64,000 bases of DNA from Verrucomicrobiales bacterium (GTDB lineage Bacteria; Verrucomicrobiota; Verrucomicrobiia; Limisphaerales; UBA11320). The notes beneath the pieces were generated by a model. That model ran no database searches, was not told where the DNA came from, and was given only the letters and a program-made list of their open reading frames with translations. Positions 27,883 through 43,267 of the stretch are shown here, in pieces (the stretch's first letter is position 1; the number at the start of each line of letters is the position of its first letter). The position numbers were made by a program, and so were the translations under genes. The DNA lies in contig JAEUHE010000079.1 in NCBI GenBank assembly GCA_016793885.1, positions 36,234 through 100,233 on the forward strand, in the 5' to 3' direction.

Positions 27883-28096
27883 ACGGTCGGAAACTACCGT
27901 GGGCCGCCGAAAAACTCGAGTGTGAATCTCAGATTGACGACCGTCCGAATTTACCGCAGCTTGCCCGGGTTGGTTCAAAAACGTGCGGTGTCGGTGTCAC
28001 GGTGACAGCTTGTCCGGACTCCAGTCAAATGATGGGCAAACAGAATTCCTGCCAGGGCAGAATCTCCCACCGGTTTTTGGGCGTTTCAGATGGGTT

Positions 28097-28525
28097 ATGA
28101 ACGAATCGAGACTGTTTGTCGGCAATCTCTCGTACCAGACAACGGACAACGACCTCCAGGATTACTTCGCCGCCGCAGGGGTTGTGACTTCCGTTAACGT
28201 CGTGATGGACAAGCTCACCGGGCGCTCTCGCGGGTTTGCATTCATCGAATTCGGCTCGGCCGAAGACGCGAACAAGGCCGTGGAGATGTTTCACCAGAAG
28301 GAGTTCCAAGGCCGGGTTCTGACCGTCAACGTGGCTCGACCACGCGAAGAACGTCCTCCCGGCGGCGGGGGTGGCGGTGGCTTCCGCGGCGGCGGTGACC
28401 GGGGCGGACGCGGCGGCGGTGGAGACCGCCCAGATCGCGGCGGTCGCGGTGGTGACCGGGGCGGCGGGGATCGCGGAGACCGTGGCGATCGGGGAGATCG
28501 CGGCGAGCGGCGATACCGCGGTTGA
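28097..28525 (+). CDS. RNA-binding protein with one RRM domain and an RGG/Gly-Arg-Asp-rich tail
   Basis: RNP2 LFVGNLSY and RNP1 RGFAFIEF. The C-terminus is a GGGDRGGRGG repeat tract. Confidence 0.85.
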   Translation: MNESRLFVGNLSYQTTDNDLQDYFAAAGVVTSVNVVMDKLTGRSRGFAFIEFGSAEDANKAVEMFHQKEFQGRVLTVNVARPREERPPGGGGGGGFRGGGDRGGRGGGGDRPDRGGRGGDRGGGDRGDRGDRGDRGERRYRG

Positions 28526-28746: not shown

Positions 28747-29238
28747 ATGTCCGAGAACACTCCTAATCCAGGTGCCGTTCCGCCCACACCGGCGGAAGCA
28801 GCGAAGGTTCAACCCAAAAAGGAAACCGTCCGCATTCCTCTTCCGACTCCGCCCCCCAAGGCGGCTGCCTCGACCATTAAGTTGCCCTCGATTCCGGCGG
28901 GAGGCCCTCCTCCTCCGACCGCGGCCACTCAAGCAGCGCCGGCTCCGGTGGCAGCTGCCCCAGCCCCCGCTGTGAGATCGGCAGCGCCGGCGGCTCCCGT
29001 GCCCCCCTCGACCGGTGCACCCAGCTCCACTTTGGCCAAGCCCGCCGGTCACCAGACCGCGGCTCCCTCTCCGGCGACCCCTGCCAAACAGGCTCCGGCA
29101 CCAAGACCCGCCGCTGCGCCAAGCGGCCGCCTCGCCACCATTGATCTCGTGCTCGGGATTGCCGCAGCCGTCGCTGCGATCGCGGCCGTGGTAAGCATTT
29201 TCTTGCTGAACCAGTTAGCTCAAACGTCGGCGATCTGA
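28747..29238 (+). CDS. Pro/Ala-rich low-complexity protein with a C-terminal transmembrane anchor (hypothetical)
   Basis: 163 aa. The body is P/A/T-rich. The C-terminal hydrophobic helix is LVLGIAAAVAAIAAVVSIFLL. Coding status is uncertain because of the low complexity. Confidence 0.45.
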   Translation: MSENTPNPGAVPPTPAEAAKVQPKKETVRIPLPTPPPKAAASTIKLPSIPAGGPPPPTAATQAAPAPVAAAPAPAVRSAAPAAPVPPSTGAPSSTLAKPAGHQTAAPSPATPAKQAPAPRPAAAPSGRLATIDLVLGIAAAVAAIAAVVSIFLLNQLAQTSAI

Positions 29239-29317
29239 TGAGAGTGCGGATCACTTCAGGCCGAGTTGGCTCCCATCTAGGGATGGCGCTGACAGAATTT
29301 TGACTATATTTTGACCA

Positions 29318-29349
29318 AAAGTTGACCGAGTCCAAAGTTGACCGAGTCC
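29318..29349 (+). promoter_or_regulatory. Perfect tandem 16-bp direct repeat (aaagttgaccgagtcc x2) about 30 nt upstream of trxA; candidate promoter or operator
   Basis: Two abutting identical 16-mers, each containing a TTGAC -35-like hexamer. A further ttgactatattttgacc lies just upstream. Confidence 0.5.
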
Positions 29350-29381
29350 GAACTTGATCTACCAAACTAAGACCTGAATTT

Positions 29382-29714
29382 ATGGCCGCAGCCAACGTAC
29401 TGACTTTCACCTCCGCCAATTTTAAACAAGAGGTTTTGAGCTCGAGCACCCCGGTTTTTGTAGATTTTTGGGCCGAGTGGTGCGGACCGTGCAAGATGCT
29501 CGCCCCAACGATCGATGAACTTGCCGGGGACTACGCCGGCCGAGTGAAGTTCGGCAAGGTCAACATCGATAACGACCAAGACTTGGCCGTTCAATACAAC
29601 ATTCAGTCCATTCCGACCGTGTTGCTCTTCCGCGATGGCCAGATTGCCGGCCAGATTGTGGGCAGCGGCCCCAAGAAGAAATTCAAAGACGCGATCGACA
29701 AGGTCGCGGTCTAG
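29382..29714 (+). CDS. trxA: Thioredoxin
   Basis: 110 aa with the active site WCGPC and a typical thioredoxin fold sequence. Confidence 0.92.
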   Translation: MAAANVLTFTSANFKQEVLSSSTPVFVDFWAEWCGPCKMLAPTIDELAGDYAGRVKFGKVNIDNDQDLAVQYNIQSIPTVLLFRDGQIAGQIVGSGPKKKFKDAIDKVAV

Positions 29715-29784
29715 CTCTCGCTCGTTTGCGGAGCAGAGTTGGCCTGCCCAGGTGTAACGCTGCTCCGCAACGCATTCCGAGGCC

Positions 29785-30786
29785 ATGATCCTCACGCCTC
29801 GACAGCTGGTCCAAAAAGCCGACTTTTACCGTCAGCTCGGTCAGATGACAGAGGTAGGACTGACGCTGCAGCTGGCGTTGGAGACTGCCCTTAAGCACGC
29901 CCAATCCGGCCAGATGAAGCGGGCTCTTACCCGCGTAATCGAATCGATCCATCAAGGCTCCAGCTTCGGCGAGGCCTTGTTAGCCCAGGGCCGGTGGATG
30001 CCCGCCTTCGACATTGCCTTGCTGGGTGCCGGAGAGCAAAGCGGCCGGTTGCCTGCGTGTTTTCTCAAGCTCGCCGGCTACTACGATGACCGCGCACGGC
30101 TTCTCCGTCGCGTGCTGGCTTCCCTCGCCTACCCTATCTTCCTCGTCCACATCGCCGCCTTGGTCTTTCCGATCGGCGCGCTCCAAAACCTTGTGACGCA
30201 GGGAGCCATCGGATATTTCCTACTGACCAAGATTCTCATCCTCGGCCCGATCTACCTCACCGCCGGAGCCATCGCCTACTACTCTCAAAGCGACCGCAGT
30301 GAGTTCGTTCGCCGACTGCTCGACCGGGTGCTCGACCTAACTCCGGTCGTCGGCTCGTCCCGCCGCAGCATGGCCCTCTCCCGCTTCTGCCTCGCGCTGG
30401 AGGCTCTGATTAATGCCGGCGTGGAAACCATCCACGCCTTCGAGCTTTCCGCCGTGGCCAGCGGGTCCTTCCGCCTTCAGAACGCCTCGCGCGATTTCCG
30501 CTCGCAGCTGGAGTCAGGCGTGCCGCCGTCGCAAATGCTGGATCAAGCCGGCATCTTCCCTACTGAGTTCCTCCAGCAGTATCATTCCGCCGAACTGAGC
30601 GGTAAGATCGATGAAACCCTGGTGCGCATGCACAAGTATTATGAAGACCAGGGAGCCCGCCAGTCCCACCTGGCGGTTGTGCTCGGCGGAGGCATCATCT
30701 TTGGGGTAGTGATCATCACCATCGCGTGGCAGGTCATCCAGTTCTGGCTGGGGTATTTCAATCAGATCAACCAGGTCATCCCCTAG
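29785..30786 (+). CDS. Type II secretion system F (GspF/PilC) family platform-like inner-membrane protein, orphan (no cognate ATPase or pseudopilins nearby)
   Basis: Two T2SSF-like repeats (LLGAGEQSGRLPACFLKLAGYYDDRARLLRRVLASLAYPIF and HSAELSGKIDETLVRMHKYYEDQ), each followed by a transmembrane segment. At 333 aa it is shorter than canonical GspF. Confidence 0.65.
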   Translation: MILTPRQLVQKADFYRQLGQMTEVGLTLQLALETALKHAQSGQMKRALTRVIESIHQGSSFGEALLAQGRWMPAFDIALLGAGEQSGRLPACFLKLAGYYDDRARLLRRVLASLAYPIFLVHIAALVFPIGALQNLVTQGAIGYFLLTKILILGPIYLTAGAIAYYSQSDRSEFVRRLLDRVLDLTPVVGSSRRSMALSRFCLALEALINAGVETIHAFELSAVASGSFRLQNASRDFRSQLESGVPPSQMLDQAGIFPTEFLQQYHSAELSGKIDETLVRMHKYYEDQGARQSHLAVVLGGGIIFGVVIITIAWQVIQFWLGYFNQINQVIP

Positions 30787-30920
30787 CAGCCTGCCGCCTG
30801 CTAGCCCGCACAAATAGTGTTGGCTCTCCCAGCCCCATCTGGTAATCACACCTCTCACATTCGAGGTTAACAACAGATATTCGCACCTGCTCCTGTGATG
30901 AGCCAACTTTACTGAGAACC

Positions 30921-33080
30921 ATGTCACCCATCCTTCTCATCCCCATCTTCGTCGTTCTCGCCGCCATCCTCACCATCGTGGCGCTGTGCATCCGCAAGAT
31001 CCAGCCAGGCCGCGCCGGCGTCGCCACCGGCTTCGGCGGCATCAAGGTGGCCTTCGACTATCTGATCCGCCTGCCCGTGCTGCAAAGCTACCACGTGGTG
31101 GATATCTCCGTGAAAAAGCTGGAGATCTCCCGCAAGGGAAAAGATGGCCTGGTCTGCAAGGACAACATCCGGGCCGACATCTCGGTCGCCTTTTACATCC
31201 GCGTGGAAGCCACCGAGGAAAGCGTTCGCAAGGTGGCTCAGATGCTCACCCCGGAGCGCGTGTCGGATGTCAACCAGCTGCGCGAGCTCTTCGAGGCCAA
31301 GTTCTCCGAAGCCCTCAAAACCGCCGGCAAGCAGATGCAGTTCCATGAGCTGTTTACCGAACGAATCAAATTCCGCGACCAGATTCAGAACACCATCGGC
31401 AAGGATCTGGATGGCTTCATCCTGCAGGATGTCGCGATCGACTATCTGGAGCAGACTCCGCTGGACCAACACGATCCCAGCAATGTGCTCGACTCCGAGG
31501 GCATCAAGAAAATTACCGAAATCACCCAACGGGAAAGGGTCGTCGCCAACGAATTCTCGCAGCGCGCAGCGGTGCAGATCGAACGCGAGAATGCGGACGC
31601 CGACATCGCCAAGCGCGAACAGAAGCGCCGCAACGAGGAAGATACGGCCAAGCAGACCCGCGCAATCACGGAAATCAAGGCCAACGAAGAGGCCGAAGCG
31701 CGAAAGGTCATCGAGGGCCGCAGAATGGAGGTGGAGCGCAAGCGGCTGGAGGCAGATGAGGCAATCCGGCTCCGCACCGAGGACATGAACCGCTCCGTGC
31801 AGGAACGTGAGTTTACCGTGAAGAAGGAGAAACAACGGCTCGAGCAGGAATCCATCCAAGAGGGTGAGGAAGCGCGAGTTCGTCGAGAGCGCTCGGTGTC
31901 GCTTTCGGAGATGGATAAGGAGATCAAGATCGCAGAGGCGGCAGTCGATGTGGAACGCAAGCGCGCCGTGGTCGTCGCCGAGCAAAAGGCGGTTGTCCAG
32001 CAGCAGGAGGAAAAGACCAACATCGAGGCTCGGATGACCGCCGAGCGGGTTCGGGAGGTCACCCTCATCGAGGCGGAGATGATAGCCAAGAAAGACCAGG
32101 TCGAGAAGGTGGTTGCCTCGGAAGCTCAGCGGGAGGCGGGACGCAACTTGGCGGAAGCCGAAAAGATCAAGCTGGTCATGGCCGCCGAGGGGGCGCGCGA
32201 GGCCGCCCTGCGGGACGCCGAGCGCATGCTGACCATGGCGGATGCCGAGGCCAAGTCGTCCGAGAAGCACCGCCAAGCCATGGAACAGAACGCCGAGGGG
32301 GTCGCGGCGCAAGAAGCCGCGAAAGGACTGGCGGAGGCCCGAGTGATCACGGCGCGAGCCGGCGCTCGCAAATCCGAGGCGGTCGCCCTCCGCGAAATCG
32401 GCCTGGCCGAGGCCGAGGTCACCAAGGCCAAGGGTGATGTCAGCGCGGAGGTCACCCAAACGCAGGCGGCGGCCGAAGCGGATGGCACGCGGAACCGGGA
32501 AAACGCCACCGCCACCGGAATCGAGGCCAAGATGCGAGCCGAGGCCAAGGGCATTGAGGAGAAAGCCAAGGCCATGAAGCTCCTCCATGAAGCCGGTCAA
32601 CAACACGAGGAGTTCCGGCTCCGACTCGCCAAGGAACGGGACATCGAACTGGCCGCCCTCACCACTCAGCGGGAGATCGCCCAGGCTCACTCCACTCTGG
32701 TCGGCGAGGCTCTCAAGAGCGCCAAAATCGACATCGTGGGCGGGGAGAATGACTTCTTTGAGAAGGTGGTTCGCGCCGTCGGCAACGGCAAGGCGGTGGA
32801 CCGGCTGGTCCACAACAGCAACACGCTGACCGAGATCAAAAACACGTTCTTTAACGGCGACGCCGAACACTTCAAGGCGCAGCTCCGGCGCTGGGTGCAG
32901 GATTTCGGGATCAAGACCGAGGATCTGAAAAATCTCACGCTCTCGGCGCTGCTCGGAAGGATGCTCGCTTCAACCCAGGACGCCGACTTGAAGTCGGTGC
33001 TGAAATCCAGCTTGAACGCCGCGAAAGAAGCCGGGATCGCTTCCGCTCCCGCGAGTCAAGTCATGGGTGAACCGAGCTAA
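30921..33080 (+). CDS. SPFH/Band-7 domain flotillin-like protein (N-terminal transmembrane helix, SPFH domain, long Ala/Glu-rich coiled coil)
   Basis: N-terminal transmembrane helix ILLIPIFVVLAAILTIVALCI. The SPFH core runs from about GFGGIKVAF to AIDYLEQT. About 330 aa of EA-rich heptad repeats (flotillin repeats) follow, then a C-terminal globular region. Confidence 0.85.
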   Translation: MSPILLIPIFVVLAAILTIVALCIRKIQPGRAGVATGFGGIKVAFDYLIRLPVLQSYHVVDISVKKLEISRKGKDGLVCKDNIRADISVAFYIRVEATEESVRKVAQMLTPERVSDVNQLRELFEAKFSEALKTAGKQMQFHELFTERIKFRDQIQNTIGKDLDGFILQDVAIDYLEQTPLDQHDPSNVLDSEGIKKITEITQRERVVANEFSQRAAVQIERENADADIAKREQKRRNEEDTAKQTRAITEIKANEEAEARKVIEGRRMEVERKRLEADEAIRLRTEDMNRSVQEREFTVKKEKQRLEQESIQEGEEARVRRERSVSLSEMDKEIKIAEAAVDVERKRAVVVAEQKAVVQQQEEKTNIEARMTAERVREVTLIEAEMIAKKDQVEKVVASEAQREAGRNLAEAEKIKLVMAAEGAREAALRDAERMLTMADAEAKSSEKHRQAMEQNAEGVAAQEAAKGLAEARVITARAGARKSEAVALREIGLAEAEVTKAKGDVSAEVTQTQAAAEADGTRNRENATATGIEAKMRAEAKGIEEKAKAMKLLHEAGQQHEEFRLRLAKERDIELAALTTQREIAQAHSTLVGEALKSAKIDIVGGENDFFEKVVRAVGNGKAVDRLVHNSNTLTEIKNTFFNGDAEHFKAQLRRWVQDFGIKTEDLKNLTLSALLGRMLASTQDADLKSVLKSSLNAAKEAGIASAPASQVMGEPS

Positions 33081-33091
33081 CGCCTGTCAAC

Positions 33092-36000
33092 ATGGCCGAG
33101 GCTCCACCAGGCTCCTCTCCTGATACCCGGGAAGGCGCTCCGCCCCCACCATCAGGGGCGGCCGCCTCCAACGCCTCATTGGCGGGAGCCACTTACGACC
33201 TGATCCGAACCAGGCTCCAGGCCGAAGGAGCACGTCTCCGCGAGCGGATGACCGCCCTGGATGAACGCCGCCAGGAGGTCTTCGGATCCATCGAGTTTAA
33301 GCTCCTGCGGGCTGACCGCATCGTCACGGCTCATAACTGCCTGCCGAAGGACATGGTCCAGCTGGGGGAAAAACGCTTCCTGTTCGGGTTCAATGTTCAG
33401 TTCGGACTCAAGCGAGAGATGGACCTGTCCGACGTGTTCGCCATCTATGAGCATGACAGCGAAACCGGCGCCTGGAAAGAATCGCCGCTGGACGTACTGC
33501 GCGATAAGAATTTCCTGGTCGATTTCAAGCGGCTCTACAACGTCTACGAGAAAAGTTCATTTCAGAAGTTCTCGCTGGTCGAAGGCAGGCTCTATCTCAT
33601 CTTTTCCACCGGCCCTGGCATCGACGACATTGCGGCGTTCAAATGGGAATACAACGACGGTGCGCCGCGTTACCTGGACGGCCGAGCCGAGGCCGAGTTT
33701 CGCCGGATCGGCTTCCCCCCTCCGCACGAGTTCAAGTGGCTGCTACCGGACCGCAACTCGTTCCGCTACGGGAACCATCCGCATGTGTCCATCGAGGACC
33801 GGGTGTTCGTCGAGTGCATCGGGGGCGACCTGACCATCAAGATCGAGGATAGCACCGTCAGCGGCGAAGGCATCTACTCGGAGCCGGTTGACGACAAGCA
33901 CCAGAAGCTGGATGACGCCGAGATCGCCTACGCGATCGTCGATCACCTGATCCTCCTCAAAGTCCGCCCCTACAAGGAGAACACCGCACGGTTCTTCATT
34001 TTTAACGAGAAGACTGAGCAGGCTGTCCGCGTCGATTCCATAGGCCAGTCCTGCGTGTTCCTACCGGAGGGTCATGGGCTGATCTTCCCTGATGGCTACT
34101 ATCTGGCCACCGGGGAACTCAAGCAGTTCGCCATCGATGAGCCATCGCTGGTATTCGAGCGCGTCATCCATGCGCCAAATGGAGAGGACTCGCTTTTCGT
34201 GTTCTTCGAACGGAACTCGGGATCGTACGCGCTCTTCCCCTACCGGCTCATCCAGCAGCGCGTCGAGGAGCGAATCACCTGCAACGGCTACTCGCTTTTC
34301 CCCAATGGAAATCTGGTGCTTTTCCGCGCCGATCGCGAGCCGCAAAAACACCACACCGTCCAGCTCCGCCAAACCCCTTTCCATAAACCGGGCTTCGAAC
34401 CTCCCGGCAATCGGGACGCCTTTCTCTACCAGGTCGGAAACAAGGAGGTGGTCCGATGCCTCGCCGAGTGCAACGAGGTGCTGACGTTGGTCCGCAAGGA
34501 AAGTCCCTACGCCGCGCTCTACGACGACCTGGTCAAGCGCTGCCGAAGCATTCTGGACACATACGCCTGGCTCAACCACGCCGAGGGCTCCGGCCTCAAT
34601 GAGGCGTTATTGAAGACTGCCGAGATCGCCGACAAGGCGGTGGCGGAGTTTGACAAAGTCCGCCGATTGCAGCGCGAGGCGGCCGATCGTCTCAAGGATG
34701 CGACGAAACGCTCTCAGGATTGTTTTCAGGACATTCGGCGCGGTTCGTTCCGCACGCTCAACGAGTTCGTGCGCAGCCTCTCGGCGCTTCGGCAACTGCG
34801 CGGAGAACTCATCACGCTCAAGGAAGTTCGCTACATCTCGATCCCGTCCATCGAGGCCCTTGAAAAATCTGTTGCCGAGCAGCTGGTCCAACTTTCCGGA
34901 ACCTGCGTCCAGTTCCTGCTGCGCCCCGAGTCCTTGGATCCCTATCGAAAGCAGGCGGAGGAGCAGCGTGCCGCCGTCGAGAAGGTCGCCAAAGCAGCCG
35001 AAGGCCGAAAAATCGAGAAAGCTGTGTCGGATGCCGGCGCGGAGCTGGAGATGCTGATTGAAGTGGTGAACGGCCTCCGGATCGAAGACGCCACCGAAAC
35101 CACGCGGATCATCGACGGCATCACCTCCGTCTACTCCACGCTCAACCAGATTCGGGCCGCGCTCAAAAAGAAGCTCAGCTCGCTCGTCTCCACCGAAAGC
35201 ACCGCCCAGTTCACCGCCCAGGTCAAGCTGCTGAGCCAGGCGGCGGCAAGCTATCTCGATCTCTGCGACTCTCCGGCCAAATGCGACGATTACCTCAACC
35301 GCCTCTCGGTGCAGATTGAGGAACTGGAAGGCGCGTTCGCCGACTTTGAAGAGTTCACTGTCCAGCTGACGGAGCGGAGGACGGAGATCTACGAGGCGTT
35401 CGAACAGCGAAAGATCGCCTTGGTGGAGCAGCGCAGCCGGAAGGCCTCGGCGCTGATGAGCGCCGCCGAACGAATTCTGAAGGTGATTCAGAACCGGCTC
35501 GCGAGCTTCAAATCCCTCGAGGACATCAACGCCTACGTCGCGTCCGACCAGATGGTCGCCAAGGTACGCGACCTGACGGCCCAGCTGCTCGCCCTGGAGG
35601 ATGCCGTCAAAGCCGATGATCTTCAGGGCCGGCTCAAGAGCATCCAACAGGAGGCGGTGCGCCAGCTCAAGGATCGTCAGGAGCTGTTTGCGGAGGGACC
35701 AGGAATCATCAAGCTGGGACGCCACAGTTTCAACATCAACACCCAGCCTTTGGACCTGACGGTGGTGATGCAGGACGACGCCCCCCATCTCCATCTCACC
35801 AGCACGAAATATTTCGAGCCTATCCTGGACGCCGCCTTTCTGGCCACCCGGGAAGCCTGGGGCCAGGAGGCCATCTCGGAGAGCCCCGAGGTGTACCGAG
35901 CCGAGTTCCTGGCCTGGCAGCTCGCCAAGACTCTGGTCGAACCCGGGCCTCAGCTTCCCGAGGCATCAAGGGACCCCGCCAACACCCTCGAAGCCATCCT

Positions 36001-38551
36001 GCAGGAATCATCCGCGCAACGGCTGGCCCGCGTTCAGGCAGGCATGGCTTCACGCTATCAGGACGGGTATACCAAGGGGGTGCATGACCTTGATGCGGCG
36101 CGCATCTTCGAGGCCTGGATTACTACCCACCACGCCCTGCAGCTCGCTCGCTACTCTCCCACGGCACGCGGTTGCGCACTGGTTTACTGGACCCGATTTT
36201 GCGGGGATCAGGAGCGGGTGCTTTGGATGGCCAAGCTCCGGGGCTTCGCCGAGCGAAATCGAGTCTTTCCTGGCGACGCCGTGCAACAGGGCTACATCGG
36301 CGAGCTGCGCACCTCGGTAGCCGGATTTCTCCACCAACATGGCCTCTTCCCGCGCGGGACCGAGTCCGAGGCCGGGGAGTATTTGTTTCATCAGCTCCTG
36401 GAGGGGGAACGCTTGGTCTCCAGCCAAGAGGCGGAGTCGCTGCTCACCGTGTTCCGACAACATCTCGCCGCCAAAGGCAGCGAGGAGACGTTCTTGAAGG
36501 CCCGCCTTGCCCTGAAGGACCACCCTGGCAGCGAACTCGAGCTGGTGCGGGACTGGGTGCGTGGCTTCCTGCTCGACAAACCGCAGGCCCGACCGTTCCT
36601 GGAGGAAGTCGCGGCCTTCCTCTTCGCCGGCGACACCGTCCAGCGTCAGCCCGTCCAGGCCCCCGCCCAAACGATGCTGGAGGGGATGCAAGGTCAGCAC
36701 CCCCGGGTTCAAACCAGCCGTTACACGTTTGACTATCACGACTTCACCGCGCGACTCCATCGCCACGAGCGCGACTTCGTGCCGCGCTTTCAGGCCTACC
36801 ATCAGATCAAACAGGGCCTGCTGGAGCGCGAGCGCAAACGGCTGCGACTGGGCGAATTCAAGCCGAGGGTCCTGAGTTCCTTCGTCCGGAACCAACTGGT
36901 CGACCATGTCTACTTGCCGCGAGTCGGCGACAATCTCGCCAAACAGATAGGCGCCGCCGGCGATGCCAAGCGAACCGATCTCATGGGCCTACTGCTGCTC
37001 ATCTCGCCTCCGGGCTATGGCAAGACCACTCTCATGGAGTATGTGGCCGCCCGACTCGGAATCGTCTTCGTCAAGATCAACGGCCCCGCCATCGGCCACG
37101 CCGTCACGTCGCTGGATCCGGAGGAGGCCCCCAACGCCGCCGCTCGGGAGGAAATCCACAAGCTCAACCTGGCCCTGGAAATGGGCGACAACGTGCTCAT
37201 CTGCGTCGATGACATCCAGCACTGCAATCCGGAGTTCCTGCAGAAATTCATCTCGCTTTGCGACGGCCAGCGGAAGATCGAAGGGGTGTGGCGGGGCCAA
37301 CCTCGAACCTACGATTTGCGCGGGCGAAAGGTGGTGGTGGTCATGGCCGGCAACCCTTACACGGAGAGCGGACAGAAGTTCAAGATTCCCGACATGCTTG
37401 CCAACCGGGCCGACACCTACAACCTGGGCGACATCATTGGGGGCAGCGCGGAAGCGTTCAAAGCCAGTTACCTCGAAAACGCCATTACTTCCAACGCCGT
37501 GCTGGCGCCGCTGACTAACAAGAGCCAGAAGGACATTCGCTCCTTCATCCACCTGGCCGAAACCGGGGAGCGTCCTGCCGATGGGTTCGAGGCCAACTAC
37601 TCCACTCAGGAGCTGGATGAGATCGTCGCCACGCTCAAGCAGCTGATCCGGATCCGGGAGATCATCCTGCTCGTCAACCAAGAGTACATCCGCTCAGCGG
37701 CGCAAACCGATGACTATCGAACCGAGCCGCCGTTCCGCCTGCAGGGGTCGTATCGGAACATGAACCGGCTGGCCGAGAAGGTGGTGCCCATGATGAACGA
37801 CGAGGAGGTGCTCCGTCTGGTCACCGATCATTATCAGGGGGAGTCCCAAACTCTGACGACCGGCGCGGAGTCCAATTTGCTGAAGTTCCGCCAAATGATC
37901 GGGATTCAAACCCCGGACGAGAAGAAGCGTTGGGAGGATATCTGTGCGACCTTCCGACGAAACCTCATTGGAAAAGGAGGCTCGGACCAGGATCCGGTGA
38001 ACCGCGTGGTACAGCAGCTCTCGGCCGTCCATACAGGCTTGGAGTCGATTCAGAGCACGCTGGCCGGGCACCTCGCCCAGAAGGCAATCCCGCCCCAGAT
38101 CTCCATCGACCTTGGTCCGCTGAACGACAACCTGGGAGCCTTGCAGTCAACCCTGCGCGCGCAGGCTGGCTCGGCGGCGGCGCCCGCCGCGCTGGGCACA
38201 CAGCTGAGTGACGGGCTTCGGGCTTTGCGCGAGGATCTCAGCCGCGCCATCACCGCCGTCCACACCGGAGCCATGGCCGAGAAAGTGAGCAGCCTCTCCC
38301 ACGAGATGGAGATGATCCACAGCACCCTGGCGACCCTGAAAGACATCTCCGCTCAGCAGCGAGATCATGTTCGCAAGATCGACGAGATGCTGGTCGCTCG
38401 AGCCAAGGACGGAACCGTGGAACTGCCACTCACTCAGGAAATGTTGAACAACGAGCGGGTGTTCTTGGAGAAAATCCAGCAGGCGCTGGCCGAAGCCCAA
38501 AACCAGCCGACCGCCCCTGCCCCTCCCCCACTGCCTGGAAACCAAACATGA
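33092..38551 (+). CDS. Giant (1819 aa) multidomain protein: N-terminal beta-rich domain, long coiled coils, and an embedded MoxR/AAA_5-type AAA+ ATPase domain
   Basis: Walker A LLLISPPGYGKTTL (about nt 37003), Walker B VLICVDDIQHCNPE, sensor-1 VVVVMAGNPYT, and an IPDMLANRAD Arg motif. Coiled coil spans about aa 470-830. It starts 12 nt after the flotillin stop. Confidence 0.8.
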   Translation: MAEAPPGSSPDTREGAPPPPSGAAASNASLAGATYDLIRTRLQAEGARLRERMTALDERRQEVFGSIEFKLLRADRIVTAHNCLPKDMVQLGEKRFLFGFNVQFGLKREMDLSDVFAIYEHDSETGAWKESPLDVLRDKNFLVDFKRLYNVYEKSSFQKFSLVEGRLYLIFSTGPGIDDIAAFKWEYNDGAPRYLDGRAEAEFRRIGFPPPHEFKWLLPDRNSFRYGNHPHVSIEDRVFVECIGGDLTIKIEDSTVSGEGIYSEPVDDKHQKLDDAEIAYAIVDHLILLKVRPYKENTARFFIFNEKTEQAVRVDSIGQSCVFLPEGHGLIFPDGYYLATGELKQFAIDEPSLVFERVIHAPNGEDSLFVFFERNSGSYALFPYRLIQQRVEERITCNGYSLFPNGNLVLFRADREPQKHHTVQLRQTPFHKPGFEPPGNRDAFLYQVGNKEVVRCLAECNEVLTLVRKESPYAALYDDLVKRCRSILDTYAWLNHAEGSGLNEALLKTAEIADKAVAEFDKVRRLQREAADRLKDATKRSQDCFQDIRRGSFRTLNEFVRSLSALRQLRGELITLKEVRYISIPSIEALEKSVAEQLVQLSGTCVQFLLRPESLDPYRKQAEEQRAAVEKVAKAAEGRKIEKAVSDAGAELEMLIEVVNGLRIEDATETTRIIDGITSVYSTLNQIRAALKKKLSSLVSTESTAQFTAQVKLLSQAAASYLDLCDSPAKCDDYLNRLSVQIEELEGAFADFEEFTVQLTERRTEIYEAFEQRKIALVEQRSRKASALMSAAERILKVIQNRLASFKSLEDINAYVASDQMVAKVRDLTAQLLALEDAVKADDLQGRLKSIQQEAVRQLKDRQELFAEGPGIIKLGRHSFNINTQPLDLTVVMQDDAPHLHLTSTKYFEPILDAAFLATREAWGQEAISESPEVYRAEFLAWQLAKTLVEPGPQLPEASRDPANTLEAILQESSAQRLARVQAGMASRYQDGYTKGVHDLDAARIFEAWITTHHALQLARYSPTARGCALVYWTRFCGDQERVLWMAKLRGFAERNRVFPGDAVQQGYIGELRTSVAGFLHQHGLFPRGTESEAGEYLFHQLLEGERLVSSQEAESLLTVFRQHLAAKGSEETFLKARLALKDHPGSELELVRDWVRGFLLDKPQARPFLEEVAAFLFAGDTVQRQPVQAPAQTMLEGMQGQHPRVQTSRYTFDYHDFTARLHRHERDFVPRFQAYHQIKQGLLERERKRLRLGEFKPRVLSSFVRNQLVDHVYLPRVGDNLAKQIGAAGDAKRTDLMGLLLLISPPGYGKTTLMEYVAARLGIVFVKINGPAIGHAVTSLDPEEAPNAAAREEIHKLNLALEMGDNVLICVDDIQHCNPEFLQKFISLCDGQRKIEGVWRGQPRTYDLRGRKVVVVMAGNPYTESGQKFKIPDMLANRADTYNLGDIIGGSAEAFKASYLENAITSNAVLAPLTNKSQKDIRSFIHLAETGERPADGFEANYSTQELDEIVATLKQLIRIREIILLVNQEYIRSAAQTDDYRTEPPFRLQGSYRNMNRLAEKVVPMMNDEEVLRLVTDHYQGESQTLTTGAESNLLKFRQMIGIQTPDEKKRWEDICATFRRNLIGKGGSDQDPVNRVVQQLSAVHTGLESIQSTLAGHLAQKAIPPQISIDLGPLNDNLGALQSTLRAQAGSAAAPAALGTQLSDGLRALREDLSRAITAVHTGAMAEKVSSLSHEMEMIHSTLATLKDISAQQRDHVRKIDEMLVARAKDGTVELPLTQEMLNNERVFLEKIQQALAEAQNQPTAPAPPPLPGNQT

Positions 38552-39387
38552 AAACCTTCGCCCAGAAAATCCAAGAAGCCGCCCAGAAGGCGATTCGAAT
38601 GAAGCAAGCGGTCGAAGGCGCTCCGCTGAAAGTGGCGGAATTCCGCCACGCGCTGCAACAGACGACCCATGAGCTGCAAGGGATCGGCCAAGATGTCCAG
38701 TCCACGATCTCCGGGCTCAAGCTCACGGATCCCAGCGGCCTGCCCGAGGCAGTGCATCAGATCACTGCCGCCGCCCCGGTGTTGCGGGAGGCGGGGTATG
38801 AGGTTTCCGGATTCGAGATGGAATTGGGTCCGATCCACCGGTTGGTCCTCCTGCTCGACCGAGCTCAGGCCGTCCCCTTGCCCCTGCTCAGCAGTCTCGT
38901 TCAGCGGCATGCCGGCGAGGCCATTCTTCAGGGACTGCTGGAGGCGGTGCTCGAAGCGGAAACAATGGTGGTGGGCCTCGAGTTGCCAAAGCTCTCGTAT
39001 CGCCGCCTGCGCATCCATCTCGGTGCGATCCCGACGATTCGCCTCATCTGGGAAGCCCATGAAAACGCCAAAGCGGCCTCTCGGTTCGTGGCCGGCCACG
39101 AATCCGGCGTGCTTCCCTCTTCCATGACCGGCTCAGTGCAGACGACCACTCCCAATATTCCCACCTACGGACAGTCTTCCTTCTTCGAGCGTCGGCCGAC
39201 AGCCGCGCCCTCCAGTCCACCGCCGCTGCCCAACGCCGGGGTTCCACCTCACCCTGAGCATCCGGCCCCCGCTGCCACCCCGGCAGCAATCCCGCCCCCG
39301 CAGCCGCATAGCTACTCCAAGGATTGGGGACGTGGCGCTCTCGATCGTTTCAAAAAGATGCCCAACCTGGGATCCGACAATGGTTAA
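38548..39387 (+). CDS. Hypothetical protein (279 aa) with a Pro-rich C-terminus; translationally coupled to the giant ATPase (ATGA overlap)
   Basis: Its start overlaps the upstream stop by 4 nt. The N-terminal part is helical and the C-terminus is PSSPPPLPNAGVPPHPEHPAP. I recognised no family. Confidence 0.55.
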   Translation: MKTFAQKIQEAAQKAIRMKQAVEGAPLKVAEFRHALQQTTHELQGIGQDVQSTISGLKLTDPSGLPEAVHQITAAAPVLREAGYEVSGFEMELGPIHRLVLLLDRAQAVPLPLLSSLVQRHAGEAILQGLLEAVLEAETMVVGLELPKLSYRRLRIHLGAIPTIRLIWEAHENAKAASRFVAGHESGVLPSSMTGSVQTTTPNIPTYGQSSFFERRPTAAPSSPPPLPNAGVPPHPEHPAPAATPAAIPPPQPHSYSKDWGRGALDRFKKMPNLGSDNG

Positions 39388-39519: not shown

Positions 39520-40575
39520 CTACGTCCGATGTACCGGGTTACTGCCTGACGAGTTCAGGGGCTGGAACCGAAGATCCAGATGCGCGCCGAAGGCGTTGGC
39601 GTGGGTCACCAACTGAGGCACGCCTTGGATCACGTCTAACGCCGGTTTGTGAACGTGACCCGCACAAACCCCCAACAGCGTCTTCGCTGCAAACACCTCG
39701 CGATGAAACGCCAGGGTGGCACTCGAGTGCCCGCCCTCCGGCCAGCGAGGCCGCCGTTCAAGTTCATATCCTTTATCGGAAGACGCCCCCCAATCCGGAT
39801 GGCCGCAACCGAACCCCACCGAACGCCCCGGAGCATACAAGGGGATATGAACCAACAAAACCATCGGCTGTCCGCGACGGACCTCAGTCCTCCAGAACCG
39901 CAATTGCGCAGGCGTAATCTGGTAGTCCGAGTTATCAATGCTCACGAACCGAACCCCCTGAACTTCGACTGAGCTGGCCATCGGATCCCGACCTTGGTAG
40001 AGCGGCAGCAGGCGCTTTTGGATCCAGGTGGCTCGTAACGACTCGATGGATCCCTCCATTCCCTCGTAGTGCCAGTCGTGATTGCCCGCGACGTACACAT
40101 AAGGCAGCCCGGCGAAGCGCAACCGGTCCAACACCCATTCAATCGCGGCCTCCGAGGGAAAACTAAAGAGATCTCCGACAATCGCAACGAGATCGGCCTT
40201 GATTAGCTGCGCCTGGCGCAACGAAGCCTCGAAGCATTCCTGGGGATGCGTGGCCTGGCCGGTCAAAAAATGCAGTGGCCGATTGTAAGCGCCAGCCATT
40301 CGGCCGCTGAACGAGCGGAACGGGATCCCTCGAACGTCGTCCAGGAACAAATGGGTATCGGCCAACATCAGCACGCGAAGCGGCCGAGAAATCAGCGGGG
40401 AATAAAAACTGGCGTTCTGGCCCTCCAGCGCGAAGGTCCCTCGGGGCTGGGCTCCCGGAAATCGCGGGACAGTGCGACCCGCAGCTCCCTCCGGATAGGC
40501 CGCGGCTTGAGCTCCCAGAGCCACGCCGGCCGTGGCGGAAACCGACAGCGAACGAAGGAAACCACGACGGTTCAT
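39520..40575 (-). CDS. Metallophosphoesterase (calcineurin-like) with a TAT signal
   Basis: MNRRGFLRSL TAT motif. LADTHLF, GDLFS and VAGNHDWHYEG metal-binding motifs. Confidence 0.8.
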   Translation of the reverse strand: MNRRGFLRSLSVSATAGVALGAQAAAYPEGAAGRTVPRFPGAQPRGTFALEGQNASFYSPLISRPLRVLMLADTHLFLDDVRGIPFRSFSGRMAGAYNRPLHFLTGQATHPQECFEASLRQAQLIKADLVAIVGDLFSFPSEAAIEWVLDRLRFAGLPYVYVAGNHDWHYEGMEGSIESLRATWIQKRLLPLYQGRDPMASSVEVQGVRFVSIDNSDYQITPAQLRFWRTEVRRGQPMVLLVHIPLYAPGRSVGFGCGHPDWGASSDKGYELERRPRWPEGGHSSATLAFHREVFAAKTLLGVCAGHVHKPALDVIQGVPQLVTHANAFGAHLDLRFQPLNSSGSNPVHRT

Positions 40576-40595
40576 AACTTGTTGGACGTACCCGC

Positions 40596-41585
40596 TCAGC
40601 CAGCGGAAAGCTGGCGAGCCGCCTTACGCTTGGCCAGGTAACGCTTCACCACTTCATCAGCAATCACTCCACCCAGGATCACTGTTCCAATAATCGCGAA
40701 TTCGATATTCTTCGGCAGGGCATCGACCAGGGTGATCATGGTTCGAAGCACTTGCATCAGGGCGGTTCCCAAAATCACGCCGATGATGGTCCCCTGCCCG
40801 CCTCGCAAACTGCATCCCCCCAACACGGCGGCGGCAATCGCATAGAGCTCATAAAAGTTGCCGAAGTCGGCCGGCTGTGCGGAATTAACATCGAGCACGA
40901 ACAGCAGCCCGCCGAGGCCCGAAAGGGTAGCGCAGATCACATACGCCAGAATGATCATCCGTTCCGTGCGAATGCCGCTGTACTTGGCGGCGTCCTCGTT
41001 GCGTCCCAACGCCAGCAAATATCGGCCGTAGATGGTCTGATTGAGCAGAATGGCGGCCAGGATGGCGACTACCAGGAGGATGATGCAGGGAAAAGGAATG
41101 GCGAAGTTATCCAAGCCGGGGATGGCGATTTTCTCGGTAGCCAGCCAGCGTAACCCTTTAAAGTCATTTCCAAACCCCATGGTTTGGTCCCGGGTGATCC
41201 CGCGGGCGATCCCGCGGTAGATGAGAAGCCCGCACAGCGTGACGACAAAGGGCTGGATTCGAAGACGGGTGATCAGCCACCCATGCACAAACCCGATCGC
41301 GACGGAGACTCCAATGGCGATGCCCAGGGCAGCCCCGAGCGGCACCTTGATTTCAGTCAACAGCCACGGCAGGCCCACTCCGACCAGGCAGACGACAGAC
41401 CCGATGGAGAGATCGATGCCGCTGGTGATGATCACAAACGCGACCCCGATGCTCAGGATCCCGAACAGCGCGGTTCGGCGAAACAGGTTCTCGATGTTGT
41501 AGGGGGTAAGAAATTGCGGGCTCATCAGGTGTGTGGCCACGCACACCACCAGCAGCAGTCCAAAAATACCCAATAGCTTCTTCAT
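40596..41585 (-). CDS. Sugar ABC transporter permease (RbsC/monosaccharide CUT2 family)
   Basis: 329-aa polytopic protein with conserved GIDLSIGS and the permease EAA-like region. Its start overlaps the ATPase stop by 4 nt. Confidence 0.88.
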   Translation of the reverse strand: MKKLLGIFGLLLVVCVATHLMSPQFLTPYNIENLFRRTALFGILSIGVAFVIITSGIDLSIGSVVCLVGVGLPWLLTEIKVPLGAALGIAIGVSVAIGFVHGWLITRLRIQPFVVTLCGLLIYRGIARGITRDQTMGFGNDFKGLRWLATEKIAIPGLDNFAIPFPCIILLVVAILAAILLNQTIYGRYLLALGRNEDAAKYSGIRTERMIILAYVICATLSGLGGLLFVLDVNSAQPADFGNFYELYAIAAAVLGGCSLRGGQGTIIGVILGTALMQVLRTMITLVDALPKNIEFAIIGTVILGGVIADEVVKRYLAKRKAARQLSAG

Positions 41586-43141
41586 GACAAATCTCCCACC
41601 TGACCCGTCGCCAACCTCATCACGGCCTCTTCACTGAGCTGATGCCGCCGCAGTTCACCCGCGATGCGCCCCTCGTGCATGACCAGAGTTCGATCCGATA
41701 GCCCCAGAACCTCCTCCATCTCGCTCGAGACGAAGAGAATCGCCACCCCCTGCTCCACCAACTCTTCCATGATCCGATAAATCTCCGCCTTGGCCCCGAC
41801 ATCGATGCCCCGCGTGGGCTCATCCAAAAGCAGCACTCTAGGCTCCAGCGCCAGCCACTTGCCCAGAACAACCTTTTGTTGGTTGCCTCCCGAGAGAAAA
41901 CGGACCTCCTGCCGGTCATTCGGTGTCTTGATCCTCAGCCGCTGAATCATGTCGACGGACAGCTGGACTTCGTAGGATTTCGGCAACCGTCCCCACCGCT
42001 GCTGCCGTCGCAGACTGGCCAGGCTGAGGTTTTCCCGCACCGCCATCTCGAGCACCAGCCCCTGCTGCTTACGATCCTCGGGCACCAAGGCCAAGCCGCC
42101 ATCGATGGCATCCAGCGGCGTCTTGATGCAGCGCGCCTGACCGGAGATGGAAATCTGACCGGAGACAGCCGGCGTGATTCCAAAAAGAGTCTGTAAAACC
42201 TCAGTCCGACCGGCTCCCACCAAACCTGCCAGGCCGACCATCTCTCCAGCGAACAACCGAAAGCTGATGGGCTGGTCCGGATGCGCCGGAGTTCGGAGTT
42301 CCTGCACGTCCAGCAATGGAGCCTGCCGCTCAGCCTGATGCGTAGACTTCGCCGCGGCGGCGGATTGGCCGCGGCGATAGAACTGTGAAACATCCCGCCC
42401 GACCATCAAGCGCACCAAATTGTCATGCGTGATCTCCCCGGCGGACAGTTCCCCGGCATTCTCGCCGTCACGGAGCACCACCACGCGATGCGACAACTCG
42501 CGCACTTCACCCAATCGATGGCTGATGTAGAGGATACTCACCCCGCGCGAGCTCAGATCACGAATCACGTTCTTGAGCTGCTCCGCTTCGTGCTGGCTTA
42601 AGCTGGAAGTCGGCTCATCCATGATCAGCAGCTGCGCATTGACCGAAAGGGCTTTGGCGATCTCTACCATCTGCTGGTGCCCGATGGTCAGGTCGCTGAC
42701 GAGGGTCCGGGGATCCACCTTCAGTCCGACCCGATCCAGGAAACCGACCGCTTCACGGCGGATTCGGGCATGGTCGATGAAGCCTCCGCGGAGAGGTTCC
42801 CGGCCGAGGAAAATATTGGCTCCGACCTCCAGGTTGTCGGCCAGGTTCAGCTCCTGATGAATCAGGGCGATGCCTAGCTCCAAGGCAGCTTCGACCGAGT
42901 CGATCACCACTCGACGTCCTTGCAGCACGAGTTCCCCTTCATCCGGCGGCTGAACTCCGGCCAGGATCTTCATCAGGGTGCTCTTGCCCGCACCGTTCTC
43001 CCCCACCACCGAAACCACCTCACCACGCCCAATGGAAAGACTCACGCCCCGAAGTGCCTTCACCCCGGGGAATTGCTTAACCATCCCTCGGGCTTCGAGG
43101 AACGGGGCTGCCGACTCAGTTGGAGAAGTAGGGGCGACCAT
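41582..43141 (-). CDS. Sugar ABC transporter ATP-binding protein with two ABC domains (RbsA/MglA-like)
   Basis: Two Walker A motifs (GENGAGKST and GLVGAGRTE), two signature motifs (LSIGHQQMVEIAK and LSGGNQQKVVL), and two Walker B motifs. The ATG at 43141 is the likely start; the track's 43201 start adds 20 residues. Confidence 0.9.
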   Translation of the reverse strand: MVAPTSPTESAAPFLEARGMVKQFPGVKALRGVSLSIGRGEVVSVVGENGAGKSTLMKILAGVQPPDEGELVLQGRRVVIDSVEAALELGIALIHQELNLADNLEVGANIFLGREPLRGGFIDHARIRREAVGFLDRVGLKVDPRTLVSDLTIGHQQMVEIAKALSVNAQLLIMDEPTSSLSQHEAEQLKNVIRDLSSRGVSILYISHRLGEVRELSHRVVVLRDGENAGELSAGEITHDNLVRLMVGRDVSQFYRRGQSAAAAKSTHQAERQAPLLDVQELRTPAHPDQPISFRLFAGEMVGLAGLVGAGRTEVLQTLFGITPAVSGQISISGQARCIKTPLDAIDGGLALVPEDRKQQGLVLEMAVRENLSLASLRRQQRWGRLPKSYEVQLSVDMIQRLRIKTPNDRQEVRFLSGGNQQKVVLGKWLALEPRVLLLDEPTRGIDVGAKAEIYRIMEELVEQGVAILFVSSEMEEVLGLSDRTLVMHEGRIAGELRRHQLSEEAVMRLATGQVGDLS

Positions 43142-43267
43142 GGATCCAGCAAAAATGGCAACCTTCGGGAAGTGCAACCCACCCAGGCCGGAGTTCGACA
43201 TGCAAGTCGAACCTTACGGACACCAGCGGACTCTGGGGCTGCACCGCCGAAAGAAATCCGGGCTGCG

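Follow-up and report, generated by a model that had tools for sequence, protein, structure and literature searches.

The window, by which we mean the whole 64,000-nucleotide (64-kb) stretch of DNA analysed here, carries four consecutive plus-strand open reading frames at 29785-30786 (333 amino acids), 30921-33080 (719 amino acids), 33092-38551 (1819 amino acids) and 38548-39387 (279 amino acids). These frames, their close spacing and the ATPase motifs of the largest product are as the initial annotation had described them, including the ATGA overlap of 4 nt between the giant gene and the 279-residue frame; the packing between the flotillin and giant genes is indeed tight, with a measured gap of 11 nt rather than the 12 nt first given, and 134 nt separate the GspF-like gene from the flotillin gene. 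Judged by gene order across genomes, the interval is made up of two unrelated units, orf163-trxA-short T2SSF and flotillin-giant-p279, with the following features.

28747-29238, plus strand: orf163, first gene of orf163-trxA-T2SSF, encoding a 163-residue Pro/Ala-rich protein with a C-terminal membrane anchor (from its translation)
29382-29714, plus strand: trxA, thioredoxin, conserved partner of the GspF-like gene (Pfam Thioredoxin, E 1.4e-33)
29785-30786, plus strand: short T2SSF/GspF/PilC-like polytopic protein, 333 residues (Pfam T2SSF in two stretches, E 2.7e-34)
30921-33080, plus strand: YqiK-type flotillin with an N-terminal anchor, an SPFH region, an Ala/Glu-rich coiled coil and a family-specific C-terminal domain (YqiK homology)
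33092-38551, plus strand: giant ATPase of the DUF3686 + DUF7902 + AAA+ family, 1819 residues (Pfam)
33302-34372, plus strand: predicted β-propeller, the DUF3686 core, giant residues 71-427 (AlphaFold2, Foldseek)
34421-35689, plus strand: predicted long α-helical, coiled-coil-like region including DUF7902, giant residues 444-866 (AlphaFold2, Pfam)
35705-36637, plus strand: predicted small β domain (872-910) followed by an all-α domain, giant residues 872-1182 (AlphaFold2)
36959-37771, plus strand: single AAA+ module with its lid, giant residues 1290-1560 (16-sequence alignment, Pfam)
38548-39387, plus strand: p279, a clade-specific protein with N-terminal helices, an α/β core (residues 60-172), a proline-rich disordered linker and a C-terminal motif
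39337-39369, plus strand: C-terminal peptide ALDRFKKMPNL of p279, a candidate docking or membrane-binding motif (alignment)

The flotillin identity proposed for the 719-residue protein is borne out by its homology to E. coli YqiK (BLASTP E 7e-37, 31% over 437 residues; hhalign E 1.2e-42). Its hydrophobic N-terminus spans residues 3-24; in the alignment with YqiK, the SPFH region falls on residues 11-200, and the match runs on to residue 442, which places the coiled-coil 'flotillin' region within it. The family profile additionally matches the helical region of QmcA (8z5g, E 1.4e-4), and databases list the homologues under the names flotillin or YqiK. No Pfam family, Band_7 included, is matched by the window protein; a Band_7 match was found in 3 of 25 orthologues, with a best E of 1.6e-10.

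The giant does not count as an unknown protein, as full-length matches place it in Pfam DUF3686 (PF12458; 536.7 bits against a cut-off of 25, E 4.5e-161, profile positions 2-447 of 448) and DUF7902 (PF25472; 91.1 bits against a cut-off of 26, E 5.3e-26, residues 614-695). Its family is large, with at least 2255 homologues among the scored candidates, 827 representatives at 50% identity and at least 582 matches in species-representative genomes; the nearest homologues are all from Verrucomicrobiota (63-80% identity), and similarity follows taxonomy. In an AlphaFold2 model of residues 1-1200, residues 71-427 form about 28 β-strands with pLDDT mostly between 75 and 90, although the blade number and other details are uncertain given the shallow alignment used (62-68% identity). 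A Foldseek search of this region against the PDB returned β-propellers as the best domain-sized matches, namely Sec12 (4h5i, E 9.5e-7), the DCAF1 WD40 domain and a prolyl-oligopeptidase propeller. Further along, the small β and all-α domains (residues 872-1182) contain invariant positions such as G992, G996, H998, D999 and D1001.

The AAA+ motifs were compared across 16 diverse giant homologues of 31-48% identity. The Walker A (SPPGYGKTT, residues 1305-1313), Walker B (VDD, D1373/D1374) and sensor-1 (GNPY, N1421) motifs that had been read from the sequence are present and invariant in all 16. Two further invariant residues, R1439 and R1555, are candidates for the arginine finger and sensor-2, respectively, as assigned from motif position. 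The invariance of the catalytic residues counts in favour of a catalytically competent ATPase. The earlier label 'MoxR-type' is weakly backed, since AAA_5 (E 2.3e-7, 31.3 bits, cut-off 22) scores barely ahead of AAA (3.8e-6) and RuvB_N (2.6e-5), and the best NCBIfam and PDB matches are RuvB and Rix7. For the PDB sequences the E values are about 1e-4, and only the P-loop is matched. Comparing the giant-family profile with the PDB did not yield a clade assignment either, as the matches to Rix7, NVL and RuvB were confined to the P-loop region. Of those recurrent neighbours that were scanned, a part of the full set, none was a VWA gene. The giant shows neither a protease domain nor a transmembrane segment, and no aromatic pore-loop motif is evident in its AAA+ module, so a threading mechanism would lack support from the sequence.

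Gene order ties the giant closely to the flotillin, in agreement with the link claimed in the initial annotation: the flotillin gene lies directly upstream of the giant gene in 61 of the 64 loci, which span six phyla, the exceptions being three loci in which the giant has no adjacent flotillin (L019, L020 and L052). Upstream of the flotillin, 54 of 59 loci carry a YqiJ-like gene, whose homology to the E. coli protein has a probability of 96.4% by hhalign. The usual order of the module is a YqiJ/NfeD-like membrane protein, a YqiK-type flotillin and a β-propeller/coiled-coil/AAA+ ATPase (DUF3686). Cultured bacteria with the module include Roseibacillus, Rubritalea, Hymenobacter, Flavobacterium and Leeuwenhoekiella. 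The YqiJ-like gene is missing only in the verrucomicrobial clade of the window (L001, L002, L003, L005 and L006), and no NfeD/YqiJ-like gene was found in the 64-kb window. The statement that the established partner NfeD is absent is thus right for the window and its clade and wrong across the family, where a YqiJ/NfeD-like protein is the usual third partner.

Many Bacteroidota loci add to the module genes for an HTH regulator, a CesT/Tir-like chaperone (CesT_Tir_1) and PspA. The PspA gene shares the operon in 16 of 32 Bacteroidota loci and in 2 of 14 Planctomycetota loci, lying downstream of the giant in the latter two, and a PLD-like gene is linked to the module in four loci. The window contains no PLD gene, and searching it by tblastn with all members of the PspA and CesT clusters gave no match at E values up to 0.01. 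With PspA, CesT, YqiJ and PLD all missing from the window, the proposed client of the ATPase would be encoded elsewhere or be a different one.

The third gene of the unit, p279, belongs with the flotillin and the giant within the clade of the window, as had been claimed. Its homologue lies on the opposite strand in L006 and L007, so the translational coupling seen here is not universal. The fold of p279 has no match in the PDB. Its C-terminal motif is strongly conserved, with A264-P272 invariant in 11 homologues and the variants ALARFKKMPDL and ALDRFKRMP occurring in L001, L005 and L003. The p279 gene occurs exactly where the YqiJ-like gene is absent. This mutual exclusivity of p279 and the NfeD-like partner points to a replaceable adaptor position; the locus comparison shows p279 present, and the YqiJ-like gene lost, in the clade of the window. 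On this gene-order evidence, flotillin-giant-p279 (30921-39387) is a local, clade-specific version of a widespread module.

The initial annotation knew of no such module, a statement that is out of date, as the association of a flotillin with a β-propeller/coiled-coil AAA+ protein has been published from comparative genomics (Ravi et al. 2024, mSystems, PMC11237479). The same gene order was described there in Dokdonia donghaensis, around ANH61663.1, and interpreted as serving 'sub-membrane dynamics'; PLD-containing and abbreviated operon versions, the latter without the CesT/Tir-PspA dyad, are also mentioned (PMC11237479). That study gives neither the Pfam identity (DUF3686) nor an experiment, and does not mention p279 (PMC11237479). 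The flavobacterial loci L063, L066, L070, L072 and L077 have the order of those operons, namely an HTH gene on the minus strand, CesT_Tir, PspA, YqiJ-like, flotillin and giant. The window shares with them a flotillin directly preceding the β-propeller/coiled-coil/AAA+ gene, and differs from the full operon in lacking both the CesT/Tir-PspA dyad and YqiJ/YuaF and in having the additional 279-residue protein. We found no paper on DUF3686 (PF12458) in the literature, and no experimental work on any family member or on the flotillin-giant pair.

Defence systems often employ large NTPases equipped with repeat-domain sensors, and the module could in principle be an anti-phage or conflict system that senses infection through the β-propeller, switches through the AAA+ module and damages or seals the membrane. 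The PLD-family gene in four loci and the name of PspA, 'phage shock', would fit such a role. A search of PADLOC-DB v2 returned a weak LmuB match in the giant (residues 590-892, E 6.9e-8) and mad8 (E 0.069), and nothing for the flotillin, p279 or the GspF-like protein. We rejected the LmuB match, which is weak and lies inside the predicted helical region, as a sign of defence, and the module proteins have no other PADLOC match that would suggest such a system. The taxonomic pattern of similarity noted above argues against it, as do the flanking genes, which where identified are mainly for metabolism and transport (malic enzyme, a CoaBC-type flavoprotein, MFS and ABC transporters). The 64-kb window has an even GC content, which gives no hint of an island, and it showed no nuclease, toxin or other effector typical of such systems. 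We consider a defence function improbable.

A role in DNA repair is still less probable. According to this explanation, the giant would be an SMC/Rad50- or RuvB-like repair ATPase, as its database labels say (the NCBI product name is 'DNA repair ATPase' and Pfam describes DUF3686 as an 'ATPase involved in DNA repair'), and its adjacency to a flotillin would be incidental. RuvB is matched weakly in the P-loop (E about 1e-3 to 1e-5) and the SMC-like LmuB, also weakly, in the helical region, which could be taken in favour of this explanation; however, the RuvB and Rix7 matches are limited to the neighbourhood of the P-loop, and the LmuB match, falling in a predicted helical region, is probably compositional. 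No DNA-binding or nuclease domain was detected in the giant, and in 61 of the 64 loci, drawn from six phyla, its conserved neighbours are genes for membrane proteins (flotillin, YqiJ-like) and for PspA and no repair genes. No paper supporting the label was found, and we regard the name 'DNA repair ATPase' as doubtful for this protein.

The GspF-like gene upstream has different company. As the initial annotation had claimed, its 333-residue product contains two T2SSF repeats (Pfam T2SSF, E 2.7e-34); it has three hydrophobic segments and in both respects resembles the platform proteins GspF/PilC of type II secretion systems and type IV pili. It matches residues 64-380 of E. coli GspF (E 6e-13), compared to which it is about 60 residues shorter at the N-terminus, and it scores 117 bits, far below the NCBIfam equivalog cut-off of 424. 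An exact look-up of its sequence returned no record. The absence of GspE, secretin and pseudopilins from the window was confirmed, with no tblastn match in the 64-kb window to E. coli GspE, GspD, GspG or GspO and no hit in a prepilin motif scan of the same DNA. In contrast to type II secretion and type IV pilus systems, the protein thus has no GspE/PilB, secretin or pilin gene within 64 kb, and its partner is trxA.

Nine metagenome loci carry short GspF-like genes that are 38-42% identical, one of them 95% identical, and trxA lies immediately upstream in all seven that have upstream DNA. An orf163 homologue is found upstream of trxA in six metagenome loci; orf163 itself has no Pfam match. By this conservation, orf163-trxA-short T2SSF (28747-30786) constitutes a conserved trio. 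None of the nine loci matched the flotillin, the giant or p279, and a GspF-like gene stands beside the flotillin in 0 of 80 genome loci, being absent also in the two closest relatives. A GspF-like match in L037 was rejected as evidence of linkage.

Counted across genomes, the flotillin and the giant are co-conserved, p279 joins them in its own clade and the GspF-like gene does not, its conserved upstream neighbour being trxA; at the level of synteny the T2SSF-like gene therefore goes with trxA, separately, and falls outside the four-gene system into which the initial annotation had placed it. Consensus promoter and terminator scans of the intergenic regions gave nothing, terminator-like sites being fewer than in shuffled sequences. 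The view that an orphan GspF-like platform, the flotillin, the giant ATPase and the proline-rich protein act together could draw on the shared strand, the short spacings (134 nt, 11 nt and a 4-nt overlap) and the failure to detect a terminator-like site between the genes, but it is already contradicted by synteny, both in the genome loci and two closest relatives and in the trxA-linked metagenome loci, the L037 gene being about 6 kb off and behind divergently oriented genes, and it is very improbable indeed.

Taken as a whole, the explanation that we favour, namely two units of which the flotillin unit is a clade version of a widespread module with a role in membrane remodelling, has a probability of roughly 0.6. 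The part concerning identity and membership is very probable, and the mechanistic part is tentative.

Several known systems resemble the flotillin unit in part. The window flotillin is homologous to YqiK, the gene upstream of the flotillin has YqiJ homology in most loci of the family, and the module family retains the NfeD-then-SPFH order of E. coli yqiJ-yqiK and B. subtilis yuaF-yuaG (floT), an order described for operons of NfeD-like and flotillin (SPFH2) genes (PMC2636767). In contrast to the window, no giant ATPase follows yqiK in E. coli; the window flotillin is longer (719 versus 553 residues), and the window carries no YqiJ-like gene.

As an analogy only, the closest functional parallel is HflK/C-FtsH, in which an SPFH scaffold is likewise partnered with an AAA+ ATPase at the membrane. 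Eukaryotic pairs of SPFH and AAA+ proteins include prohibitin/m-AAA and SLP2/YME1L. FtsH is an AAA+ protease anchored in the membrane and HflK/C is oriented towards the periplasm, whereas the giant has no protease domain or transmembrane segment and its flotillin scaffold would be cytoplasmic; any sequence relationship ends at the AAA+ P-loop.

A likeness to ESCRT-III/Vps4 and PspA/Vipp1 comes from the co-encoding of PspA, a member of the ESCRT-III superfamily, in part of the module loci. Here the differences are that the giant has no recognised MIT domain or Vps4 homology and that the window has no PspA gene. The recycling of a membrane-bound polymer by an AAA+ ATPase, following the Vps4 paradigm, was suggested previously (PMC11237479), and B. 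subtilis YdjI is needed for membrane localisation of PspA according to Scholz 2021, as that work is cited in PMC10936438.

For the flotillin unit, we infer that the likely function is ATP-driven remodelling at a flotillin scaffold during membrane stress or repair. In such a scheme, the flotillin would form an oligomeric scaffold of the SPFH type at the cytoplasmic face of the inner membrane, and the giant would oligomerise via its single AAA+ module, its long helical arm extending the β-propeller as a client-binding platform. ATP hydrolysis could then remodel or disassemble a membrane-bound assembly at the flotillin patch, in a setting of envelope stress or membrane repair, with polymers of the PspA/ESCRT-III kind, damaged membrane proteins or even the flotillin scaffold as candidate clients. 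As an adaptor, p279 may bind one partner through its folded core and another partner, or the membrane, through the ALDRFKKMP peptide on its flexible proline-rich tether.

Somewhat more speculative is a wider proposal, in which flotillin-DUF3686 would be an ATP-driven membrane-maintenance machine of at least six phyla, comparable to HflKC-FtsH or ESCRT-III-Vps4, with NfeD/YqiJ replaced in one clade by a docking protein, p279. In that proposal p279 is soluble, and the giant's β-propeller is one example of a site where it might dock via the invariant ALDRFKKMP peptide.

The module is widely conserved, already known in silico and experimentally uncharacterised, and the window carries a clade-specific variant of it. 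The value of the window is limited by the association having been published in silico; new here are the tie between the module and Pfam DUF3686, the doubt cast on the 'DNA repair ATPase' label, the counts of gene-order conservation, the exclusivity of the NfeD-like and 279-residue proteins, and the finding that the short T2SSF gene goes with trxA and not with the module. Bacterial flotillins are often described as organising membrane microdomains, by a mechanism that is still debated, and a dedicated giant AAA+ partner conserved beside a YqiK-type flotillin in hundreds of species offers a concrete handle on that mechanism; the pairing predicts that flotillin scaffolds are sites of an energy-consuming step and are linked to membrane repair of the PspA type.

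The window derives from a Verrucomicrobiales metagenome-assembled genome, and the NCBI entry of its giant ATPase, at 100% identity, lies on a 147-kb contig. The four plus-strand ORFs that the initial annotation had placed between 29785 and 39387, and interpreted as a single membrane system, are present as described:

29785–30786, plus strand: ORF, GspF-like protein, 333 aa
30921–33080, plus strand: ORF, flotillin, 719 aa
33092–38551, plus strand: ORF, giant ATPase, 1819 aa
38548–39387, plus strand: ORF, p279, 279 aa

The GspF-like and flotillin genes are separated by 134 nt, the flotillin and giant genes are closely packed with a measured gap of 11 nt rather than the 12 nt first given, and the giant and p279 genes share the expected ATGA overlap. 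GC content is even over the window (~0.56–0.63), so the region bears no mark of an island. Long antisense ORFs cover the flotillin and giant genes, reaching 648 aa in the window (30924–32870, 34607–35794 and 36050–36907, all minus strand) and 2086 aa in the related loci L003 (9824–16084, minus) and L075 (7952–14032, minus), where a longest-ORF gene caller chose them above the real genes; none of them matched a family, and they are probably compositional shadows of the codon composition of those genes. Further upstream, a minus-strand gene (24913–27978) encodes a 1021-aa protein in which PD40 β-propeller repeats are combined with M28 peptidase and PDZ domains, opposite a probably spurious 466-aa ORF (25966–27366, plus) with no Pfam match. 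It is followed by a gene for a 180-aa RNA-recognition-motif protein (27983–28525, plus; RRM_1, E = 1.7e-21), the like of which is also found in the unrelated locus L025, far away from the module. On the 3′ side of p279, the minus-strand genes at 39520–43201 encode a calcineurin-like metallophosphoesterase and a sugar-type ABC transporter with its BPD_transp_2 permease and duplicated ABC ATPase; these genes are unrelated to the module and set its 3′ boundary.

The 719-aa protein has no match of its own in Pfam, NCBIfam or PDB sequences, with neither the Band_7 nor the Flot model of Pfam matching it, and is labelled 'hypothetical' at NCBI, where close homologues are named 'flotillin family protein'. 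BLASTP aligned it to E. coli YqiK (E = 7e-37, 31% identity over 437 residues), beginning at its membrane anchor and taking in the SPFH domain, and a family profile of 25 sequences matched YqiK in hhalign (E = 1.2e-42) and touched QmcA (8z5g). This homology backs the original flotillin call and, at the sequence level, identifies the protein as a YqiK-type flotillin. Only three of the 25 orthologues reached Band_7 (best E = 1.6e-10), an annotation gap through which the Pfam Band_7 and Flot models miss this flotillin subfamily.

We analysed gene neighbourhoods by tblastn, ORF clustering and profile searches in 80 loci, which according to their record titles come from Verrucomicrobiota, Planctomycetota, Bacteroidota, Desulfobacterota, Clostridia and Kiritimatiellota. 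The giant was directly preceded by a same-strand flotillin in 61 of the 64 loci with enough upstream DNA. The initial proposal was right in that flotillin and the giant AAA+ protein, with a coupled small protein, form a functional unit. In the three exceptions (L019, Desulfobacteraceae; L020, Cytophagaceae; L052, Bacteroidia), no flotillin lies within 7–10 kb upstream of the giant, and it may be encoded elsewhere in the genome. Directly upstream of flotillin, 54 of 59 loci carry a ~220-aa polytopic protein homologous to E. coli YqiJ (hhalign probability 96.4%; the Pfam YqiJ_N match is sub-threshold), the NfeD-like partner of YqiK (PMC2636767). The reported absence of an NfeD partner thus holds for the window and fails for the family. 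The Bacteroidota operon is often longer at its upstream end, with a divergent HTH gene, a CesT_Tir_1 chaperone (E = 1.1e-56) and PspA (E = 2.5e-40), the last found in 16 of 32 Bacteroidota loci; PspA also lies just 3′ of the giant in two Planctomycetota loci, and a PLD-family gene occurs in four loci. No homologue of YqiJ, PspA, CesT or PLD was found in the 64-kb window. We put the probability that the identity and membership of the module are as stated here at roughly 0.9. That it is instead a defence system is improbable, as PADLOC gave no support, its conservation tracks taxonomy and it is set mainly amid metabolic and transport genes.

The giant is not an orphan: it carries a full-length match to Pfam DUF3686 (aa 49–491, E = 4.5e-161), along with matches to DUF7902 (aa 614–695) and an AAA module (aa 1301–1427). 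The family has at least 2255 homologues among scored candidates and at least 582 matches in one-genome-per-species contigs; its N-terminal 661 residues gave 827 representatives at 50% identity. An AlphaFold2 model of residues 1–1200, built from a shallow alignment (mean pLDDT 77), begins with an N-terminal helix, followed by an all-β region of ~28 strands (71–427), very long helices (444–866), a small β domain (872–910) and an all-α domain (933–1182); its top domain-sized PDB matches in Foldseek were the β-propellers of Sec12, the DCAF1 WD40 domain and prolyl-oligopeptidase. The ATPase motifs first noted are present, and Walker A (SPPGYGKTT), Walker B (D1373/D1374) and sensor-1 (N1421) are invariant over 16 homologues of 31–48% identity, as are R1439 and R1555, whose positions relative to the motifs suggest an arginine finger and sensor-2, respectively. 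The 'MoxR-type' designation is weakly supported at best, because AAA_5, generic AAA and RuvB_N score similarly and the PDB matches, to RuvB, Rix7 and NVL (E ~1e-3 to 1e-4), are limited to the P-loop region. NCBI names the product 'DNA repair ATPase', and the only signals pointing that way are P-loop-level RuvB similarity and an SMC-like LmuB match in the helical region; however, DNA-related domains are lacking and the gene neighbourhood contradicts such a role, making a true DNA-repair ATPase very unlikely, and the name appears to be an unsupported legacy label. A literature search on DUF3686 (PF12458) found no paper.

The 333-aa GspF-like protein does contain two T2SSF repeats (Pfam E = 2.7e-34), aligns to residues 64–380 of E. 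coli GspF and scores far under the NCBIfam GspF and PilC equivalog cut-offs; in agreement with the initial annotation, searches of the 64-kb window revealed no GspE, secretin or pseudopilin, and they found no prepilin peptidase either. Its gene was found in only one sampled locus, L037, ~6 kb from flotillin and behind opposite-strand genes. Source gene calls for the two closest relatives (giants 68–69% identical) give flotillin (723–724 aa), the giant and a 265–280-aa protein, with different genes upstream. Searching metagenomes with the GspF-like protein yielded nine loci, whose proteins are 38–42% identical to that of the window (95% in L093). Thioredoxin (trxA) lies immediately upstream in all seven with upstream DNA, six of which also carry a homologue of orf163, and none of the nine contains flotillin, the giant or p279. 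Because these loci keep trxA and lack the module genes, the interval holds two units, orf163–trxA–T2SSF and flotillin–giant–p279. The former is a conserved trio of a Pro/Ala-rich, C-terminally anchored protein, thioredoxin and a short T2SSF protein (window 28747–30786; metagenome loci L087–L093), with a GspG-like match ~6 kb upstream in L090 and L091. Synteny contradicts a four-gene system that includes the GspF-like protein and leaves it almost no likelihood.

No family match was found for p279. Its model has low-confidence N-terminal helices, a confident α/β core (aa 60–172, pLDDT ~90, order H-H-E-E-H-H-E-E-H) and a disordered, proline-rich linker carrying a conserved SFFERRP, followed by an invariant C-terminal ALDRFKKMP motif, which reads ALDRFKKMPxL in the close clade and has DDKWxxFPDxSF in its place in L006 and L007. 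Among the sampled loci, a p279 profile found homologues only directly downstream on the same strand in L001, L002, L003 and L005, and downstream on the opposite strand in L006 and L007; judging by position and size, the downstream 265–280-aa genes of L083 and L084 are probably p279 as well. In the marine or soil verrucomicrobial loci L006 and L007, the p279 homologue is followed by a PLD-family gene, a 703–818-aa gene with no Pfam match and then a planctomycete-type PSCyt/DUF1553 and DUF1501 pair (L006 16607–23312; L007 9259–14876). The loci without a YqiJ-like gene are exactly L001, L002, L003, L005 and L006, all p279 carriers (L007, with too little DNA upstream of flotillin, was left out of this comparison); p279 and the YqiJ/NfeD-like gene exclude each other in the loci sampled.

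Given its homology to YqiK, the flotillin is expected to build an SPFH scaffold that is anchored in the membrane on its cytoplasmic side. Single AAA+ modules of the giant's superfamily normally act as ring oligomers, a β-propeller is a typical protein-binding platform, and PspA is an ESCRT-III-superfamily membrane-repair protein. The giant combines one AAA+ module that has intact catalytic residues with a long helical spacer and, at its end, a β-propeller. Several observations point to ATP-driven remodelling of a membrane-associated assembly in envelope stress or repair: the giant is constantly linked at the gene level to flotillin and to an NfeD-like protein, it is frequently linked to PspA and a CesT-type chaperone, and, according to the passage of PMC10936438 that cites Scholz 2021, localisation of PspA to the B. 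subtilis membrane requires an SPFH protein. The closest analogies of the flotillin–giant pair, as analogies only, are HflK/C–FtsH and ESCRT-III–Vps4. The window's clade lacks the NfeD-like partner, and there p279 may act as an adaptor that binds through two sites, the folded core and the tethered C-terminal peptide. We propose this mechanism, remodelling at a flotillin scaffold with p279 as adaptor, only tentatively.

The module is not undescribed, as first supposed: the core association of flotillin with a β-propeller AAA+ protein was published by Ravi et al. 2024 (PMC11237479; preprint 2020), who describe operons combining CesT/Tir-PspA, a YqiJ/YuaF-type membrane protein and sometimes a PLD hydrolase, with abbreviated versions 'more widely distributed'. 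The gene order in their table row for Dokdonia donghaensis is the same as in the flavobacterial loci analysed here. That paper makes no mention of p279, contains no experiments and does not tie the ATPase to Pfam DUF3686, a term absent from its supplement; our search found no further literature on flotillin-associated β-propeller AAA+ proteins. The module of the window is a clade-specific variant of this computationally described system, to which it adds only the substitution of p279 for YqiJ and the link to DUF3686, and the module overall is well worth experimental study.
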